Shown here: piece by piece, positions 7,219 through 51,158 of the stretch | How the letters are laid out: each line of letters opens with the position of its first letter | Position numbering within the stretch: position 1 is the stretch's first letter | Source: an uncultured Gammaproteobacteria bacterium | GTDB lineage: Bacteria; Patescibacteriota; Patescibacteriia; Magasanikbacterales; UBA922 | DNA: 64,000 nucleotides | Reading direction: 5' to 3' | NCBI GenBank assembly: GCA_964433095.1 | Contig: CAYSPW010000001.1 | Coordinates: 4,296 to 68,295, forward strand | The notes under the pieces: model-generated | What the model was told of the DNA's origin: nothing | What the model saw: only the letters and a program-made list of their open reading frames with translations | The model's database searches: none | Made by a program: the position numbers and the translations under genes

Positions 7219-7221
7219 ATA

Positions 7222-7250
7222 CCCTTTTTTCAATGCAAACAAAAAAAGGG
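7222..7250 (+). terminator. hairpin terminator after era (CCCTTTTTTT...AAAAAAAGGG, then T-rich tail)
   Basis: A perfect 10-bp inverted repeat with a 10-nt loop, followed by TTGTTTGTTTT. It lies between the convergent era and riboflavin kinase genes. Confidence 0.4.
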
Positions 7251-7376
7251 TTGTTTGTTTTAATACCGTCTCAAAAGTAATTATTTAAGCCGAGAACAAT
7301 CATCACTCATAACCGTATTTTTTCGATTCCGCTGATAAAGACTCGCCTCCCAACAGCTTAAATCACATCTCCATAT

Positions 7377-7733
7377 TCAAATAGTAGGATATTTAAGCAC
7401 ATCCCGTACCATCTTTATATCTTGCAGGATTTTTTCCCGCAATTCGTATTTGGAATTAAAACCGCACATTTCACTTACCTTTTGTATCGGTTCAATCTCA
7501 ATATATACACCATAAAAATCCTCATCTAGATAATCAAGCAGGTGTACTTCCACTTTCCACGGTTTATTCCGTATAGCCAACGCGCCTTTGTATTTTTTCT
7601 TGCGCACATCAACCCAAACCGCGTAGACACCGCTGTCCAGATCAACTTTTCTTTTTGGAGTATCCAGATTGGCAGTCAGATATCCTGTTTTAGCGCCGAT
7701 GCCGTCGCCGCGTACTACTATTCCGCTGAACAT
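7377..7733 (-). CDS. riboflavin kinase (stand-alone flavokinase domain)
   Basis: GIVVRGDGIGAKTGYLTANL ... GVYAVWV ... EVHLLDYLDEDFYG resembles the RibF C-terminal kinase domain. There is no FAD synthetase domain. Confidence 0.6.
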   Translation of the reverse strand: MFSGIVVRGDGIGAKTGYLTANLDTPKRKVDLDSGVYAVWVDVRKKKYKGALAIRNKPWKVEVHLLDYLDEDFYGVYIEIEPIQKVSEMCGFNSKYELREKILQDIKMVRDVLKYPTI

Positions 7734-7746
7734 ATTTTTTTTGCAT

Positions 7747-44684: not shown

Positions 44685-46772
44685 TCAGCCTTTTTTAGAA
44701 GTTTTATTTTTTGATGATTGCATTTTTTTTAACCGCGCGATTTCATCACGCAAAATGGCGGCCAGTTCAAACTCCAGATTCTCAGCCGCCTGCTTCATTT
44801 TTAATAGTTTGTCGTGGATGATTTGTCCAACCGGACGCTCGTCTCCGATCAAATCAAGTTCAAGAACTTCCCTGCCCTGGCGTTGATTAAATCCGGCTTT
44901 GGCTTTTTCCGCCGTTATGCCGAACTCTTGCAAAATATTGCGGATATTTTTTTTAATGGTCCGCGGAGTAATACCATGTTTTTGATTGTATTTAAGCTGC
45001 AACCGGCGCCTGCGACCGGTCTCGTCAATCGCTTTTTTGAGCGAACCGGTAATATTATCAGCGTAAAGCACCACCCTTCCGTTGACATTTCTCGCCGCTC
45101 TTCCAATGGTCTGAATCAAGCTGGTTTCGGAACGCAAAAAACCCTCTTTGTCCGCGTCCAGTATGGCCACCAGCGAAACCTCGGGAATATCCAATCCTTC
45201 CCTTAACAGATTAACCCCCACAATCACGTCAATCTTCCCCGCTCGCAAGTCATTTATAATCTGAATTCTTTCCAAAGTCTTAATATCGGAGTGAAGATAC
45301 TCCACTTTAATTTTTTTATTTAATAAATAATCACTTAGATCTTCGGCCATTTTTTTCGTCAAAGTGGTGACTAATGCTCGCTCGCCTTTTTTAACCTGTT
45401 CATTGATGCGCCGCAACAAATCATCCACTTGTGAATAATTCTTCTCTTTTCTTTCAGTTACCGGCCGCACAATTACCTCGGGGTCAACCAATCCGGTAGG
45501 ACGCACGATCTGTTCAACCACCCGATCACTGGTCTTTATTTCATAATCTGCCGGCGTGGCCGATACGAATACCATCTCACCAACTTTGCGTTCAAATTCT
45601 TCAAACTTCAGTGGACGATTATCACGCGCGCTCGGCAGCCTAAAACCATGTTCAACCAGAGTGTCTTTTCTGGCTTTGTCACCATTATACATTCCCCTGA
45701 TTTGCGGCACGGTCACATGCGACTCGTCTATGACAGTCAAAAAAGAACTGTCTAAATTTTTTTCCTCGGCCTTGTCCGCCCCTTTGGCACCGCGTAAAAA
45801 ATAATCAAACAGGGTGAATGGCGGTTCTCCCGGCACCCGCCCGTCAAAATGGCGCGAATAATTTTCAATGCCGCTGCAATATCCAATATTTTTTATCATT
45901 TCCAAGTCATGCTTTACCCGGCGCTTCAATCTCTCATACTCAAGCACCTTGCCTTTTTTTTTGAAATAGTCCAATTGCTCTTTTAATTCACGCTTGACGC
46001 TTTCAAAAGCTTTTTTACGTAAAGATCCGCTCACCACATAATGCTTGGCCGGAAAAATCCAAATATCTTGCTGGTCACACAACACTTTTCTGGTTACCGA
46101 ATCTATTTTTTCTATCAAGTCTATCTTTTGGCTGATCTCAAAGCGGTATATTTTTTCCTCATTTACCGGCATGATCTCAAATACTTGTCCGCGCATGCGA
46201 AAAGTGCCGCGCTCCAAGTCGGCGGTGGTGCGCTCAAACCGCATCTCAACCAACTTTTCCATCATGCCCCGCCTGTCCAATTTTTGTCCCTTTTCCAAGT
46301 GCAGCACAAACTGCTCATACTCATCCGGAGAGCCCAGCCCGTAGATGGCGGAAACCGAAGCCACTATTATAACATCACGTCGACTCAACAAAGCCTGGGT
46401 GCAGGCGTGACGCAATCTGTCTATTTCATCATTGATCTGAGCCTCTTTCTCAATATATGTATCCGTACCGGGCATATACGCTTCCGGCTGGTAATAATCG
46501 TAATAGCTGACGAAATACTCAACCGCATTGTCAGGAAAAAATTCTCTAAACTCATTGCACAGCTGCGCGGCCAAAGTTTTGTTGTGCGCGATTACCAAAG
46601 TGGGAATCTGCAGGTTCTCGATCACGTTGGCTATGGTAAAAGTTTTTCCCGATCCGGTCACCCCGAGCAAAGTTTGTCGTTCCATATCGGTGGTAAAGCC
46701 GTTTGTTAGCCGCTCTATCGCTTTCGGCTGATCGCCCGCCGGCTTGTATTTGGATTTAATCTTGAATTTCAT
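44685..46772 (-). CDS. uvrB: excinuclease ABC subunit B
   Basis: [15 protein letters not shown] Walker A, helicase motifs and a C-terminal UVR domain. Confidence 0.9.
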
Positions 46773-46859
46773 TTTTAACTAAATAAAGTTAAATTGGCAT
46801 TAAAAAATATATCATGCTATTAACAAGGAAGCAAACGCAAAGACCTAACGCGGTTATCC

Positions 46860-48000
46860 ACAGGCTGCTCTTTACAACATTTTCAGCACATGATATTATT
46901 CCTTTTGCCGCTACAAAAGATTGGTGCAACAGATCTCGGCGCTCGCGCCGAAATCACAGTTGAGAAAATTTCTTGCTCCACTGGCGCCACTGATGTAGAC
47001 GGTCGAAGGATGAGTGTAATCGGTACCAAGGCTCCGGCCAAAGTACTGACAAGTCCTCCGAACTCTTTATTGCCCAAGTTCACGCAAAGTTCAGCGTCCG
47101 AAACAACCACCTCGGACAACCGCAACTGCGGCCGGACTTCACACTGAACAAAGGCTAAGCTTCCGCGTCTGTTTTGTCATGGCCCCGGTCATGTCGGAAC
47201 CTATAGCGGAAATGCTGTCAAGCCGGCCTCACTGTCAAAGGTGAGAAAGGCTTAACCATCAAAATCATGGTAACGAAGATGTCGGCTTTCGGGCTGAGTC
47301 TTCATCCCAAAACATGTCGATTGTCGTGCCGCGATGTCGGACGCTCGAACTCTTAGAAGTTCGCAAACCTCCCCGACAGACTAAGCCTCCCAGCGAGGTT
47401 GACGGTACGATCGGCAAAAAAGGGACGACTTACTTGTTTGATGGACAGCAAGAGTTCAAACGGGTTTGCGCACGCTCATCTGCACAAAAGGATGAATGCG
47501 TGTTGACTTCCGTGTCAGGGCCGAAAAACCTTGGAACGGATAACCAAATCCCAGAGCCAAATGTGTGTTCGTCGCGATTATCAGCGGTCCGGTCGAAAGA
47601 TTGGGCCACAGACTCGCGCAGTTCACACCAGCTCGTGGAATAGCGCCCAGTTGAAATACACAAAGCGCCGACCACAAGCAATTGTTACAAGCGTGGTAAC
47701 GATCTCTTCGGAGAATGTTACCGGCCCCAATCCGCTTTGCGGTACGGCTAAGCTTGCTGGCGGTCCTCGGATCGTCCAGATATATTGTCGCGCCGGTGTT
47801 CAAACACAGGTAGGCAATATTGTTTGCAAGGCTCAAAAAAGAGGATAGAACACGCTCATCCTTCTTTTTTTTACGACAAATCATTATTGACGGTCCGATC
47901 GGAATTCGTTATCATATTTGCTATGGATACTATGCCGACTGCCAGCCAGTCGCGGGGAACCAACTTTCTTTCTTCGTCCAAACTCGGAAAAACCAACATC
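46860..48000 (+). ncRNA. candidate large structured ncRNA of unassigned class (strand tentative)
   Basis: 1.2 kb with no ORF above noise. GC about 52%, against a 40% background, and all six frames are open. Plus-strand hairpins: 47695-47722 (UUCG tetraloop), 47586-47607 (GAAA tetraloop), 47346-47363, CGGCG/CGCCG near 46940 and GUCCGA/UCGGAC near 47100. Internal repeats: TTGACGGTNCGATCGG (47409, 47887) and GGCTAAGCTT (47153, 47746). Confidence 0.3.
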
Positions 48001-48016
48001 GGTTTTTTGTTCATAC

Positions 48017-48048
48017 AAAAAACCCACACCAATATAAAGTGAGTGGGG
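48017..48048 (-). terminator. intrinsic terminator after the beta-CASP ribonuclease gene
   Basis: On the minus strand, CCCAC...GTGGG stem followed by TTTTTT, 55 nt downstream of the stop at 48106. Confidence 0.35.
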
Positions 48049-48105
48049 CGACAAAAAGAAAAAAGAAGGAGGCCCAAGCATAGTATCCTTTTTTTATTTT
48101 TCCGA

Positions 48106-49455
48106 CTAAATCTCAACCGTTTCGCCATACTCAGGTACAAACGCCTGAATATGCGTATCTTGCTTGATTTTATGAGCCAGCTCAGTTACCGCGTTCGGTT
48201 CACCATGAACGCAATAAACTTTTTGCGGCAGACCGGGACCGCTCGCGATCCAATCCAGCATTTTCATTTGATCACCGTGAGCCGACAAGGCACCGATAGC
48301 CCGCACCGTGCAATTTACTTCTACGGTTTCGCCGAATATTTCCACCTTTTCCGCGCCTTCATAAAGCCGGCGTCCCAGAGTGCCGCTCGCTTGGTAGCCG
48401 ACGATGATTAAAGTGGATCTCGGATCGGGCAGATAACGGATGGCATGATGCAATATGCGTCCGCCATTCATCATGCCGGCGCCCGCTATTACAATTTTCG
48501 GTCCTTTAATATTGTTAATCTTTTTGGATTCTTCCACCGTAGCGGTCATTTTTAAATTGGGAAAATCAAAAAAGTCATCCCCGGCATCATGCAAGCACAG
48601 GGCGTCTCTGTCATAATAGCCGGGATATTTTTTATATACCTTGGTTGCCTCTATTGCCAAAGGACTATCTAAATATATCGGAATCCGCGGCAGAGTTTTG
48701 TCATGTTCGCTCAAAAAATTCAGTTCATAAAGTAATTCTTGCGTACGTTCCAAAGAGAAGGCCGGTATCATGATGGTGCCCCTTCGTTGCACTCCTTCTG
48801 TGATCAAATTCAAAATTATTGATCGACGGGTATCCACGTCTTCATGCAAGCGATCGCCGTAAGTAGACTCGCTCACTACCGCGTCAACTGTGCCTAAATT
48901 CTGCGTCTCTTTTAAAATTGGTACATTTTCATTGCCAATGTCGCCGGAAAATGCCATTAATTTGCCATCAGCCTCCAATTCAATGAAGGCGGAGCCAAAA
49001 ACATGACCGGCGTCTTTCCACACAACTTCTACGCCCGACAATCGCAATGATTGGTTATATTTTACCGGCACGCAATTTTTCACCGCAATTTCAATATCAT
49101 TTTGATCAAATAATATCGGACTTTGGTACCTTCTGTTATTTTCCACCATTATATTATACGCGTCCCGCCAAAACAATCGTGAAAACTCACAGCTGGCTTC
49201 GGTCATATACACTTTCCCTTTGAAGCCTTGCTTGAATAATTTGGGCACGCGCCCGATATGGTCCAAATGCGCGTGTGTAACCAACACAAAATCTAGCTCC
49301 GAAGGGTCGAAAGGGAAAGGTTCGTGATTTCTACCTTCATTGTAATTGGAACCTTGAAACATGCCGCAGTCAACCAAAAAAAGGTTTCTTTTTGTCTGTA
49401 CCAGATGGCATGAGCCGGTTACCTCACGCGCCGCTCCAAAAAAACTGATTTTCAT
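48106..49455 (-). CDS. MBL-fold beta-CASP family ribonuclease (COG1236-like, RNA-metabolising metallo-beta-lactamase)
   Basis: LVTHAHLDHIGRVP (HxHxDH) plus beta-CASP and C-terminal motifs, 449 aa. Confidence 0.75.
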   Translation of the reverse strand: MKISFFGAAREVTGSCHLVQTKRNLFLVDCGMFQGSNYNEGRNHEPFPFDPSELDFVLVTHAHLDHIGRVPKLFKQGFKGKVYMTEASCEFSRLFWRDAYNIMVENNRRYQSPILFDQNDIEIAVKNCVPVKYNQSLRLSGVEVVWKDAGHVFGSAFIELEADGKLMAFSGDIGNENVPILKETQNLGTVDAVVSESTYGDRLHEDVDTRRSIILNLITEGVQRRGTIMIPAFSLERTQELLYELNFLSEHDKTLPRIPIYLDSPLAIEATKVYKKYPGYYDRDALCLHDAGDDFFDFPNLKMTATVEESKKINNIKGPKIVIAGAGMMNGGRILHHAIRYLPDPRSTLIIVGYQASGTLGRRLYEGAEKVEIFGETVEVNCTVRAIGALSAHGDQMKMLDWIASGPGLPQKVYCVHGEPNAVTELAHKIKQDTHIQAFVPEYGETVEI

Positions 49456-49542: not shown

Positions 49543-50235
49543 TTGATCCGTTGCTTTATGCGCAAAAAAATTAAATATATTGAAATACAAGAGCCACCGA
49601 TTGAAGAATTAAAAAAGCAAAAATCCTGCTTAAAAAGGACTTGTTTATCGGGCTGTGGGTGTTTTTTTGTATTAATATTGATTTTTTTGCTGCTTTTAAA
49701 ATTAGGCACCGGCGGCGGCGAACGCCAGCTCAAGCAAATACCGGACTATTTCCCCGCATCAATACCTGTTTATGACTCGGATTCAATAACCAAAATTACT
49801 TTTGTTTCCGGCAAAAACAGAGGAAAAATACTGGAAGCCGCCGCGTTCTTGCCCAAACTGACACTCTCCCCGCTTTTATTGGCTTTGGATCAATACGACA
49901 TTGTGCCAATCAGCGAGCGAAAAATACAAGGAGTCAAAGGATTTACTTGGGATAATTTCGTCAAATTGATGAAAGAACCGATGGTGGATAAAAATGGTAT
50001 GATTGAGATTGAATGGCGCAACCTGGCCGCTCAGCCGGATTTTGTGGCCAAGTATTATGCAACCAAATTGGAAAATTCCGGTTACAGCGTGAATCTGGTG
50101 GTAACAAGCAAAAGCAGACGCGTTTTAAATTTTTCCAAAAACGACCATTCCGGCCGCCTGACCATACACGACGATCCATCAACCGGCGGAACCGACATGG
50201 CGACACTAAATATATCACTACCATTAAACAATTAA
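49543..50235 (+). CDS. membrane-anchored hypothetical protein translationally coupled to corA
   Basis: N-terminal basic segment, then a TM helix (CGCFFVLILIFLLLLKL) and a soluble domain. Its stop is 2 nt before the corA ATG. A more likely start is the ATG about 15 nt in (MRKKIKY). A TGTACA-N17-TATAAT promoter-like element lies immediately upstream. Confidence 0.45.
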   Translation: MIRCFMRKKIKYIEIQEPPIEELKKQKSCLKRTCLSGCGCFFVLILIFLLLLKLGTGGGERQLKQIPDYFPASIPVYDSDSITKITFVSGKNRGKILEAAAFLPKLTLSPLLLALDQYDIVPISERKIQGVKGFTWDNFVKLMKEPMVDKNGMIEIEWRNLAAQPDFVAKYYATKLENSGYSVNLVVTSKSRRVLNFSKNDHSGRLTIHDDPSTGGTDMATLNISLPLNN

Positions 50236-50237
50236 CT

Positions 50238-51158
50238 ATGCCTGTTAAAATAATAAAACAAAAAAAATTAACTTGGGTGAATATTGATCATCTGGACCAA
50301 AAAGCGGTTAATTATTTGGACAATAATTTCAACTTTCATCATTTGGATTTTGAAGACATTCGCGGCGAAAGTCAGACACCGAAGATTGACGTTTATAAAA
50401 ACTACTTGTTTATCGTGCTGCAATTTCCGCACTGGCATGCTCGAACCAATACGGTCATCCCGGTGGAAATTGATATTTTCGTGGGCGATAATTTTTTAAT
50501 AACCGTGCAGCATACCAAAACCAAAGAAATAAAAAATTTTTTTTATCGCTGCATGAAAAATAAAAAAGTGAAAGCCGATTGGATGAGTCAAAGCTCGGGC
50601 TATCTGCTTTACCAGCTGATAGAATCGTTATTCAGAAACACGCGGCCGATTCTAGAAAATATCGGCAAAAAAATAAATGAATTGGAGCAGGACATCTTCA
50701 CCAAGGAACAAGAAGCCAAAACCATCAAGCTGCTCGCCACGCACAGAAGAAACGTATTAAACTTCAGGCGCATTCTTGATCCGCAAAGATATTTAATCTC
50801 CAGCCTGACGCATACCAGAAAAAATTTTCTGGATGAAAGCTTGAGTATATACTTTGATGACATAGATGACTATTTAAGCAAGCTGTGGTCAATCGTGGAA
50901 AACTACAAAGATACGGTAAACGGACTGCACGTAACCGTGGAATCGCTAATCAACCAAAGAACCAATAAAGTAATAAGTGCCTTGACCGTAATCTCTGTTT
51001 CGCTGCTGCCGCTAACCTTGCTCTCCGGCATCTATGGAATGAATATATCCAAGCTGCCGTTCAGCCAAAATCCTTTCTGGGTGTGGATGATGTTTTTAGG
51101 CCTTGCTTCCATCATAATGATATTGATAGTGATAATGAGAAAAAAACGTTGGCTGTAG
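50238..51158 (+). CDS. corA: magnesium/cobalt transporter CorA
   Basis: The C-terminal two TM helices carry the YGMN motif (IYGMNISKLPF). The track ORF 50013..51158 includes an upstream extension that overlaps the previous gene. Confidence 0.8.
   Translation: MPVKIIKQKKLTWVNIDHLDQKAVNYLDNNFNFHHLDFEDIRGESQTPKIDVYKNYLFIVLQFPHWHARTNTVIPVEIDIFVGDNFLITVQHTKTKEIKNFFYRCMKNKKVKADWMSQSSGYLLYQLIESLFRNTRPILENIGKKINELEQDIFTKEQEAKTIKLLATHRRNVLNFRRILDPQRYLISSLTHTRKNFLDESLSIYFDDIDDYLSKLWSIVENYKDTVNGLHVTVESLINQRTNKVISALTVISVSLLPLTLLSGIYGMNISKLPFSQNPFWVWMMFLGLASIIMILIVIMRKKRWL

Follow-up and report, generated by a model that had tools for sequence, protein, structure and literature searches.

We analyzed a 64,000-nucleotide (nt) stretch of contig CAYSPW010000001.1, referred to here as the window, and find that positions 46905-47873 of its plus strand probably constitute a stand-alone gene for a highly structured non-coding RNA (ncRNA) of about 970 nt. 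We name this candidate RNA A; it would be specific to a small Magasanikbacteria-like clade of the Candidate Phyla Radiation (CPR). The host is a member of the CPR/Patescibacteria close to Candidatus Magasanikbacteria, since the best relatives of the two proteins encoded at either side of RNA A, UvrB and a beta-CASP protein, are found in metagenome-assembled genomes of Magasanikbacteria. The gap between uvrB and the beta-CASP gene (46773-48105, 1333 nt) is the longest of the window and the only long non-coding one. It is also the only gap enriched in GC (0.476, against 0.425 for the whole window and 0.30-0.42 for the other gaps), with a maximum of 0.51-0.53 inside 47000-47800. An earlier sequence-only reading had described the region as the largest non-coding stretch of the window and as having raised GC, and on both counts it was right (the longest open reading frame [ORF] of the gap encodes 142 amino acids [aa]). 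The single 1.2-kb unit that it proposed did not hold up, however. Two candidate plus-strand units are present in the gap: RNA A and an independent one of about 170 nt, RNA B (47926-48096).

Homologues were sought by scanning genome and metagenome contigs with the beta-CASP protein, by searches of 5.8 billion proteins and by looking up ten contigs. Sampling of the lineage is sparse. Apart from the source contig, the nearest relative is GCA_014729395.1 (locus L097), whose beta-CASP and UvrB proteins are 71% and 79% identical to those of the window. Among the relatives searched, L097 is the only one that carries RNAs A and B. Its gene order is the same as that in the window, and its gap of 1983 nt contains, in the orientation of the window, an extra hairpin-terminated unit of about 180 nt, a promoter resembling that of RNA A, an RNA of about 870 nt, RNA B and an odd tRNA. 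The ∼870-nt RNA (L097:7085-7955, minus strand) is hairpin-rich, starts with the same nine bases as RNA A (UUGCCGCUA) and ends in U8.

Upstream of RNA A lies a promoter-like site (46871-46899, plus strand) composed of TTTACA, a 17-nt spacer and the extended -10 sequence TG-n-TATTAT, which matches 10 of the 12 consensus positions in addition to the TG. This site aligns with the one preceding the L097 counterpart (69% identity over 55 nt); the alignment holds CACAG..-35..TGATA.. and reaches the common first 9 nt. RNA A would have a promoter of its own, of the sigma-70 type with an extended -10, and would be divergent from uvrB. From the promoter-like site and the conserved UUGCCGCUA we infer the 5′ end of RNA A, and we put its 3′ end in a U8 tract. 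This tract (47865-47872) is the last part of a 3′ end module (47841-47872), a putative terminator that also comprises the 3′ strands of two predicted long-range helices, P-b (47841-47846) and P-a (47852-47864). The module of L097 has the same order (AAGAGG..CAUGUCCAUCCC-U8).

RNA A and its L097 counterpart were folded separately by partition function, and both folds gave the elements P1, P-a, a hairpin and P-b in the same order with pairing probabilities (p) near 1. In RNA A, nt 3-11 are predicted to pair with nt ∼90-99, forming helix P1 (46907-46915 with 46994-47003, p 0.83-1.0), which would close a 5′ domain (46907-47003) holding a hairpin at 46936-46951. The next 13 nt (GAAGGAUGAGUGU, 47005-47017) would pair with the last 13 nt before U8 to form the closing helix P-a (13 bp, p 0.90-1.0), and P-b (47053-47058 with 47841-47846, p 0.94-1.0) would stack beside it. 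Between the 5′ strands of P-a and P-b lies hairpin P-h (47020-47049, p 0.82-1.0), which has a UCCG loop and the same position as hairpin 166-201 of L097. In both RNAs P-a begins 1-3 nt after P1, and the 13 nt directly preceding the U tract make up its 3′ strand; in L097 it is formed by 149-162 with 849-861. The L097 equivalent of P-b (205-213 with 840-848) includes G.U pairs. In the folds of both species P-a links the region around nt 100 with the very last part of the RNA, as would be expected of one folding unit. Given these pairings, a body of about 830 nt, with some 18 hairpins and A-rich linkers, would be held between helices that bury both termini. Buried ends would give a compact, exonuclease-resistant RNA; it may act in trans and serve, for instance, as a scaffold or as a platform for binding. 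In addition, P-a followed by the U tract may act as an intrinsic terminator, by analogy with RNA B, in which a 10-bp stem is followed by U7.

The closing helix also shows compensatory changes. In a hand-registered alignment of P-a from both species 87% of the cells are paired, and seven pairs are invariant and four compensatory, whereas slid controls gave 0-1 compensatory pairs and 31-58% paired cells. Comparison by hand of P1 with its L097 equivalent (2-12 with 135-145) revealed one compensatory pair (C-G to G-C) and two G-C/G.U changes. BLAST aligned only the promoter and 5′ end of the two RNAs. The chain of collinear exact 7-mers comprised 15 members versus 9.0 ± 1.6 for shuffled sequences, and that of 8-mers 9 versus 4.1 ± 1.2 (about 3.8-3.9 standard deviations). 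At the level of sequence and predicted folds, these comparisons show that RNA A and the ∼870-nt RNA form a positional orthologue pair with a conserved promoter, 5′ end and closing helices.

RNA A also folds better than expected by chance. The minimum free energy (MFE) of the plus strand of region 46900-47880 is -370.9 kcal/mol, corresponding to a z-score of -7.5 (z-scores of full RNAs rest on 20 shuffles), whereas coding controls of the same length gave z-scores of -0.7 and -1.36. For the L097 counterpart z was -9.5. In both genomes structure beyond composition is stronger on the plus strand, as the opposite strands scored -4.45 (window) and -4.3 (L097). When 200-nt segments starting at 46900-47700 were folded, all nine had a negative z on the plus strand (-0.3 to -4.8), while flanking coding sequence gave values around 0. 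The predicted loops differ between strands as well. GNRA and UNCG loops, for which we took a chance rate of about 5% (our estimate), make up four of the nine tetraloops in the MFE structure of RNA A and none of the seven on the reverse strand; pooled with the L097 orthologue the counts are 7/14 and 0/11, respectively. Of the unpaired positions, 44% are A in RNA A and 59% in the orthologue. The MFE structure includes a 9-bp hairpin capped by a GAAA tetraloop (47586-47607) and another that ends in a UUCG tetraloop and whose stem is interrupted by a 2x2 internal loop (47695-47722). Both had been located at these coordinates by the sequence-only reading, as had a hairpin at 47346-47363. It had also named hairpins near 46940 (46936-46951) and near 47100 (47096-47117), and all five are found where it put them. 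Since both copies have z-scores of -7.5 or below, even though neutral sites are expected to be saturated at 71-79% protein identity, selection appears to act on the foldedness of RNA A. The sequence of its body, by all appearances, evolves fast while foldedness is kept, and the unconserved interior argues against a rigid core of the catalytic type.

A number of results weigh against the view of RNA A as one conserved, stand-alone RNA gene. First, the covariation comes from two sequences and is confined to one 13-bp helix and one P1 pair, and 42 of 500 column shuffles equalled the compensatory count of P-a. Covariation, which had been proposed earlier as a check, is thin. Second, the interiors of the two RNAs are unalignable: alignment of their pairing profiles kept 17.0 pairs, versus 15.1, 26.7 and 16.7 in rotated controls, and whole-length alignment of both RNAs by MAFFT followed by RNAalifold is meaningless with two sequences. 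A conserved tertiary core like that of RNase P or OLE is consequently unsupported. Third, perfect Watson-Crick hairpins with stems of at least 6 bp are not in excess (3, versus 1.7 ± 1.6 in shuffled sequence and a median of 3 for tiles of the window). The region had previously been called hairpin-dense; what stands of this description is folding of the plus strand beyond chance, not an excess of perfect hairpins. The signal of RNA A is its overall thermodynamic stability together with its loop types, and not the number of perfect stems. Fourth, the 3′ end of RNA A escaped the scan for consensus terminators, because the alternative local stem at this position (47840-47846 with 47858-47865) would have a loop of 11 nt. 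Finally, the presence of unrelated content at the same site in relatives, described below, implies that RNA A is dispensable at the family level.

In other Magasanikbacteria the gap between the beta-CASP gene and uvrB varies from 7 to about 1600 nt. It contains unrelated RNAs between promoter- and terminator-like sites in loci L041, L005, L055, L003 and L109, protein genes in L102/L104, L046 and L004, and almost nothing in L006 and L050. As the same gap holds unrelated content in these relatives, RNAs A and B are taken to be clade-specific. The gap RNAs of the other loci are GC-enriched, have the same orientation as RNAs A and B and lie between the beta-CASP gene and uvrB (or the DUF218 gene), on the minus strand of each locus, at L041:7351-8266, L005:7354-8377, L055:3294-4054, L003:7354-8788 and L109:4139-5250. 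Those of L041, L005, L055 and L003, which were the ones scanned, had no match in Rfam. A T-loop-like sequence, GCUCGRGUUCAAUUC, is common to L041, L005 and L055. In the next-nearest syntenic locus, L109 (UvrB 74% identical), two paralogous units stand in tandem, and their hairpins read CCUCCUCUUUCCACC...GGAGG. The protein encoded in the gap of another relative with a beta-CASP protein 67% identical (L102:6458-7315 and L104:1539-2345) is 268-285 aa long, has no Pfam hit and contains internal repeats of about 17 aa; its length differs between the two samples. Small RNA genes thus seem to have a hot spot between the beta-CASP gene and uvrB.

These data raise the question whether the region is non-functional DNA, such as the decaying remains of a gene that was lost or foreign, or a spacer with fast turnover at a variable site, in which case its GC content and hairpins would be incidental. 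Such an explanation would account for a gap that ranges from 7 to about 1980 nt among relatives with unrelated RNAs or proteins inside, for an interior that cannot be aligned with its sole counterpart, and for perfect hairpins at chance frequency. We nevertheless consider it unlikely. L097, in which the proteins encoded on either side have diverged to 71-79% identity, shares with the window the promoter, the first 9 nt and the closing helices. The z-scores of both copies do not exceed -7.5, against about -1 for coding controls, enrichment of stable tetraloops is limited to a single strand, and searches found no trace of a protein. CPR genomes, moreover, are very compact, and it is therefore improbable that 1 kb of junk would have been kept in two lineages; these genomes are also minimal and go with an episymbiotic lifestyle. 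Were RNA A not expressed, the region would merely be a variable spacer of little interest. Two other origins were examined and rejected: blastn against phage and plasmid records revealed no similarity, which leaves a phage or plasmid origin without a match, and a REP- or MITE-like repeated element is contradicted by the lack of recurrence of more than 14 nt elsewhere in the window.

The region is non-coding. Codon-usage log-likelihoods, trained on the 31 long ORFs of the window and scored in all six frames, stayed positive along the true frame of each flanking gene, and between 46800 and 48100 no frame was consistently positive for the codon usage of the genome. None of ten ORFs of the region matched Pfam or NCBIfam beyond noise at E <= 1, and tblastn with every ORF of at least 60 aa from the gaps of relatives gave nothing below E 0.01 in the region. 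It is therefore highly improbable that the region encodes a protein, be it the 142-aa ORF on the minus strand (47456-47884) or small peptides on the plus strand. ORFs of 80-142 aa do occur in several frames, and the exact 142-aa sequence stands in the protein collection as predicted protein P0121. However, in a phmmer search against 1.84 billion cluster representatives this sequence matched only itself, the L097 counterpart lacks a stop-free stretch of sufficient length (the gene caller gives only a gene of 45 aa), and the peptides that would start at a GGAUGAG common to both species, which we translated by hand, are unrelated. A degraded coding sequence, the possibility that the sequence-only reading had held against its own proposal, is likewise rejected: codon usage, Pfam/NCBIfam, phmmer and tblastn were all negative, and the ORFs in the gaps of relatives showed no similarity.

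RNA B (47926-48096, plus strand) follows RNA A directly on the same strand. It is preceded by a promoter-like site (47887-47915; TTGACG, 17 nt, TATCAT) that matches 10 of the 12 consensus positions, and consists of ∼170 nt enclosed by a 10-bp closing stem (47926-47935 with 48078-48087) followed by U7. Compared with its L097 copy (L097:6884-7055, minus strand; mean column identity 78%), 11 of the 32 consensus pairs are compensatory, four of them in the closing stem, and its z-score is -7.1. RNA B has no match in Rfam, and a covariance model built on it matches the window and L097 only. The comparative evidence thus makes a convincing case for RNA B as a separate small structured RNA. A sequence resembling a Shine-Dalgarno site, AAGAAGGAGG (48063-48072), is partly paired with an upstream CU-rich segment of the RNA.

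Several repeats were observed in RNA A. A predicted three-way junction (47462-47551), present in the MFE structure, comprises hairpin H1 (47470-47503) and a second hairpin, and the L097 RNA has the same two stem sequences for H1, UCAUCUG and GAUGAAU. Both strands of P-a are duplicated in H1 (repeats D1 and D12), in the window as well as in L097; the duplicated segments are 47006-47017, 47470-47480, 47488-47503 and 47850-47863. These four segments could pair in two ways, which might reflect a folding intermediate, a switch or an intermolecular strand swap. Another repeat is the 16-nt sequence TTGACGGT[A/C]CGATCGG, found inside RNA A at 47399-47414 and in the -35 region of the RNA B promoter at 47887-47902. 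The two copies are identical at 15 of 16 positions (chance expectation about 0.01 by our estimate), each includes a CGAUCG or CCGAUCGG palindrome, and a looser third copy is located at 47577-47598. An internal tandem duplication with a unit of about 485 nt, considered because of short repeats 480-590 nt apart, was not supported: local alignment of the two halves scored 30, compared with 25 ± 3.7 for shuffled sequence.

The proximity of RNA B makes it necessary to consider that the region is transcribed but is cis-acting or composite. It might, for instance, be a long structured leader on a transcript shared with RNA B, comprise several small RNAs, or belong to a convergent transcript whose read-through is antisense to the beta-CASP gene. 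RNA B does lie directly after RNA A on the same strand, RNA A is convergent with the beta-CASP gene, its 3′ end is not a textbook terminator, the 16-nt repeat ties its interior (47399) to the start of the RNA B promoter (47887), and the strands of H1 could exchange partners with the closing helix. Against this, a promoter-like site precedes RNA B itself, and its closing stem is self-contained and covaries. No further plus-strand promoter was detected between those of RNA A and RNA B when the region was scanned for promoters and terminators, RNA A contains no internal U-tract terminator, and the pairing of P-a predicted in both species fits one folding unit. We therefore judge such an arrangement quite unlikely and retain RNA A as a candidate gene of its own.

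The genes surrounding the gap belong to a housekeeping neighbourhood that comprises, according to Pfam, uvrA, a DUF218 gene, uvrB, the beta-CASP RNase gene, corA and murJ. uvrB (44685-46772, minus strand, 695 aa; Pfam UvrB, UvrB_inter, Helicase_C and UVR) has a clear codon-usage signal in its true frame and is divergent from RNA A. The beta-CASP/metallo-beta-lactamase RNase-type gene (48106-49455, minus strand, 449 aa; Pfam Beta-Casp, Lactamase_B and RMMBL) is convergent with RNAs A and B. In L097 this gene adjoins the odd tRNA mentioned above (L097:6365-6436, minus strand), which has no equivalent in the window. It scores 29.9 bits, versus an Rfam tRNA threshold of 29, and is not called by ARAGORN; it includes a G3:U70 pair, and its anticodon loop is oversized. 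Elsewhere in the window, an ORF of 381 aa listed as CorA (50013-51158, plus strand) overlaps the preceding ORF of 230 aa (49543-50235, plus strand) by about 220 nt. Since CorA proteins of relatives are 306-325 aa long, the true start of corA is probably further downstream. Most of an apparent gap of 528 nt at 7219-7746 is taken up by a minus-strand ORF of some 118 aa (starting MFSGIVVRGDG...), too short for the listing threshold of 120 aa; this gap is no candidate for an RNA.

RNA A has no counterpart among known RNA families. No hit was obtained at gathering thresholds when the whole 64-kb window was compared with Rfam 15 by cmscan, and at E <= 10 region 46600-48300 gave only chance-level lines of at most 21 bits. 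The comparison, which covered 4227 families and is the one that the sequence-only reading had proposed, also included the L097 counterpart, for which no real match was found (a group-II-D1D4-3 line of 14 bits, E 7.2, is at chance level). ARAGORN detected no tRNA or tmRNA in the window, although a tmRNA of locus L007 was recognised by it. The failure of the sequence-only reading to match RNase P, tmRNA and group II introns is therefore borne out: RNase P RNA (RF00010/RF00011) gave no match even at E <= 10, tmRNA was found by neither ARAGORN nor Rfam, and group I and group II introns had no match in the region at E <= 10, with neither a host gene nor a reverse transcriptase present. A likeness to the group I intron R element, suggested at the time, is not supported, as Intron_gpI had no match at E <= 10. 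Nor are the known RNAs then named, whose covariance models are negative and whose genomic context is wrong. ROOL (RF03087) and GOLLD (RF01998) had no match at the gathering score over 64 kb or at E <= 10 over 46600-48300, and their typical context is missing, as there is no tRNA in the 64 kb (ARAGORN, Rfam) and no phage similarity. OLE (RF01071) had no model match in this Magasanikbacteria-like host, and the flanking genes are unrelated to those associated with OLE. HEARO/IscB omega RNA (RF02033) had no model match either, and no IscB/HNH-type gene is adjacent. What survives of that earlier interpretation is a novel, lineage-specific RNA, outside all Rfam families and with a counterpart in L097 only.

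Arrays of short RNAs were also considered. Tandem Repeats Finder detected only a 15-nt A-rich run, and the direct repeats are short and irregular; a tandem guide-RNA array of the TIGR/CRISPR-like kind was thus rejected for want of regular tandem repeats. The hexamer AGUUCA is over-represented on one strand in RNA A and in the RNAs at the syntenic site of relatives (9 observed versus 1.0 expected, and 1 on the reverse strand), and the window contains five GUUCA sites (47078, 47089, 47454, 47621 and 47798). A degenerate tRNA or T-loop array was rejected as well: the AGUUCA copies of the window form no T-arms, and ARAGORN and Rfam were negative.

Given the size class of 0.9-1 kb and an ornate, hairpin-rich look that recalls GOLLD, ROOL and OLE, one may ask if RNA A is a very diverged member of a known family (these three, RNase P RNA, tmRNA, or a group I or II intron) missed by the models, the more so as divergent RNAs are frequent in CPR. 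With 4227 families giving no match at E <= 10 in the window or in the L097 RNA, no tmRNA or tRNA found by ARAGORN, and no tRNA or phage context, OLE-associated genes, intron host gene or intron-encoded protein, there is very little chance that this is so. RNA A is instead a candidate for a large structured bacterial ncRNA of the same kind but outside its known families. Very few bacterial ncRNAs besides rRNA exceed 600 nt, and among them OLE, GOLLD and ROOL are structurally remarkable and their function is open (PMC12286853). Literature searches returned no report of a large ncRNA from CPR/Patescibacteria. Retention of a ∼1-kb RNA in such a minimal genome would indicate a function worth its cost. 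The two orthologues, far apart in GC and sequence and with the same architecture of their ends, form a natural pair for structural work.

Comparison with GOLLD (RF01998) and ROOL (RF03087) is instructive. These RNAs of about 0.6-0.8 kb, bacterial ncRNAs without known function, are like RNA A large and hairpin-rich, with GNRA loops and many A-rich linkers; they are stand-alone transcription units, as RNA A would be, and were discovered via long GC-rich intergenic regions. In Firmicutes, Fusobacteria and Actinobacteria, their typical locations are prophages and the vicinity of tRNA genes (PMC5737381, PMC12286853), whereas RNA A lies in a CPR genome, flanked by uvrB and the gene of a beta-CASP RNase. 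Moreover, the cores of GOLLD and ROOL are conserved across many species, but RNA A is recognisable in two genomes only and its interior sequence is unconserved. OLE (RF01071) resembles RNA A in being an ornate ncRNA (∼600 nt) of a restricted bacterial lineage. It is confined to extremophilic or anaerobic Firmicutes and linked to oapA/B/C, and its sequence is highly conserved, unlike that of RNA A. A more far-reaching and tentative idea, which we regard as possible rather than probable, is that RNA A founds a new class of giant (∼0.9-1 kb) ornate RNAs of this ultra-small CPR clade, with termini clamped by P1 and the closing helix, a closing helix that doubles as terminator, and a body folding into a three-dimensional or multimeric particle like those of GOLLD, ROOL and OLE. 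If so, the RNA would take up about 0.1% of a genome of ∼1 Mb (our size estimate), which would imply an important function.

The predicted ends of RNA A can finally be compared with two well-known designs. As in intrinsic (Rho-independent) terminators, a predicted helix containing G+C is followed at once by U8; in RNA A, however, the strands of the stem lie about 835 nt apart, making it a long-range helix rather than a local hairpin. A closing stem directly followed by a U tract is seen in RNA B, and RNA A would have the same arrangement. Pairing of the 5′ and 3′ regions that buries the termini, as predicted for RNA A, also occurs in RNase P RNA (P1), 6S RNA (closing stem) and SRP RNA. RNA A is 2.5-5 times longer than these RNAs and has no model match to them, and it would differ from them in that its 5′ end closes a small domain of its own (P1) while the partner of the 3′ end lies some 100 nt further downstream. 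Burying both ends is nonetheless a common design of long-lived RNAs, and RNA A, as folded here, would share it.

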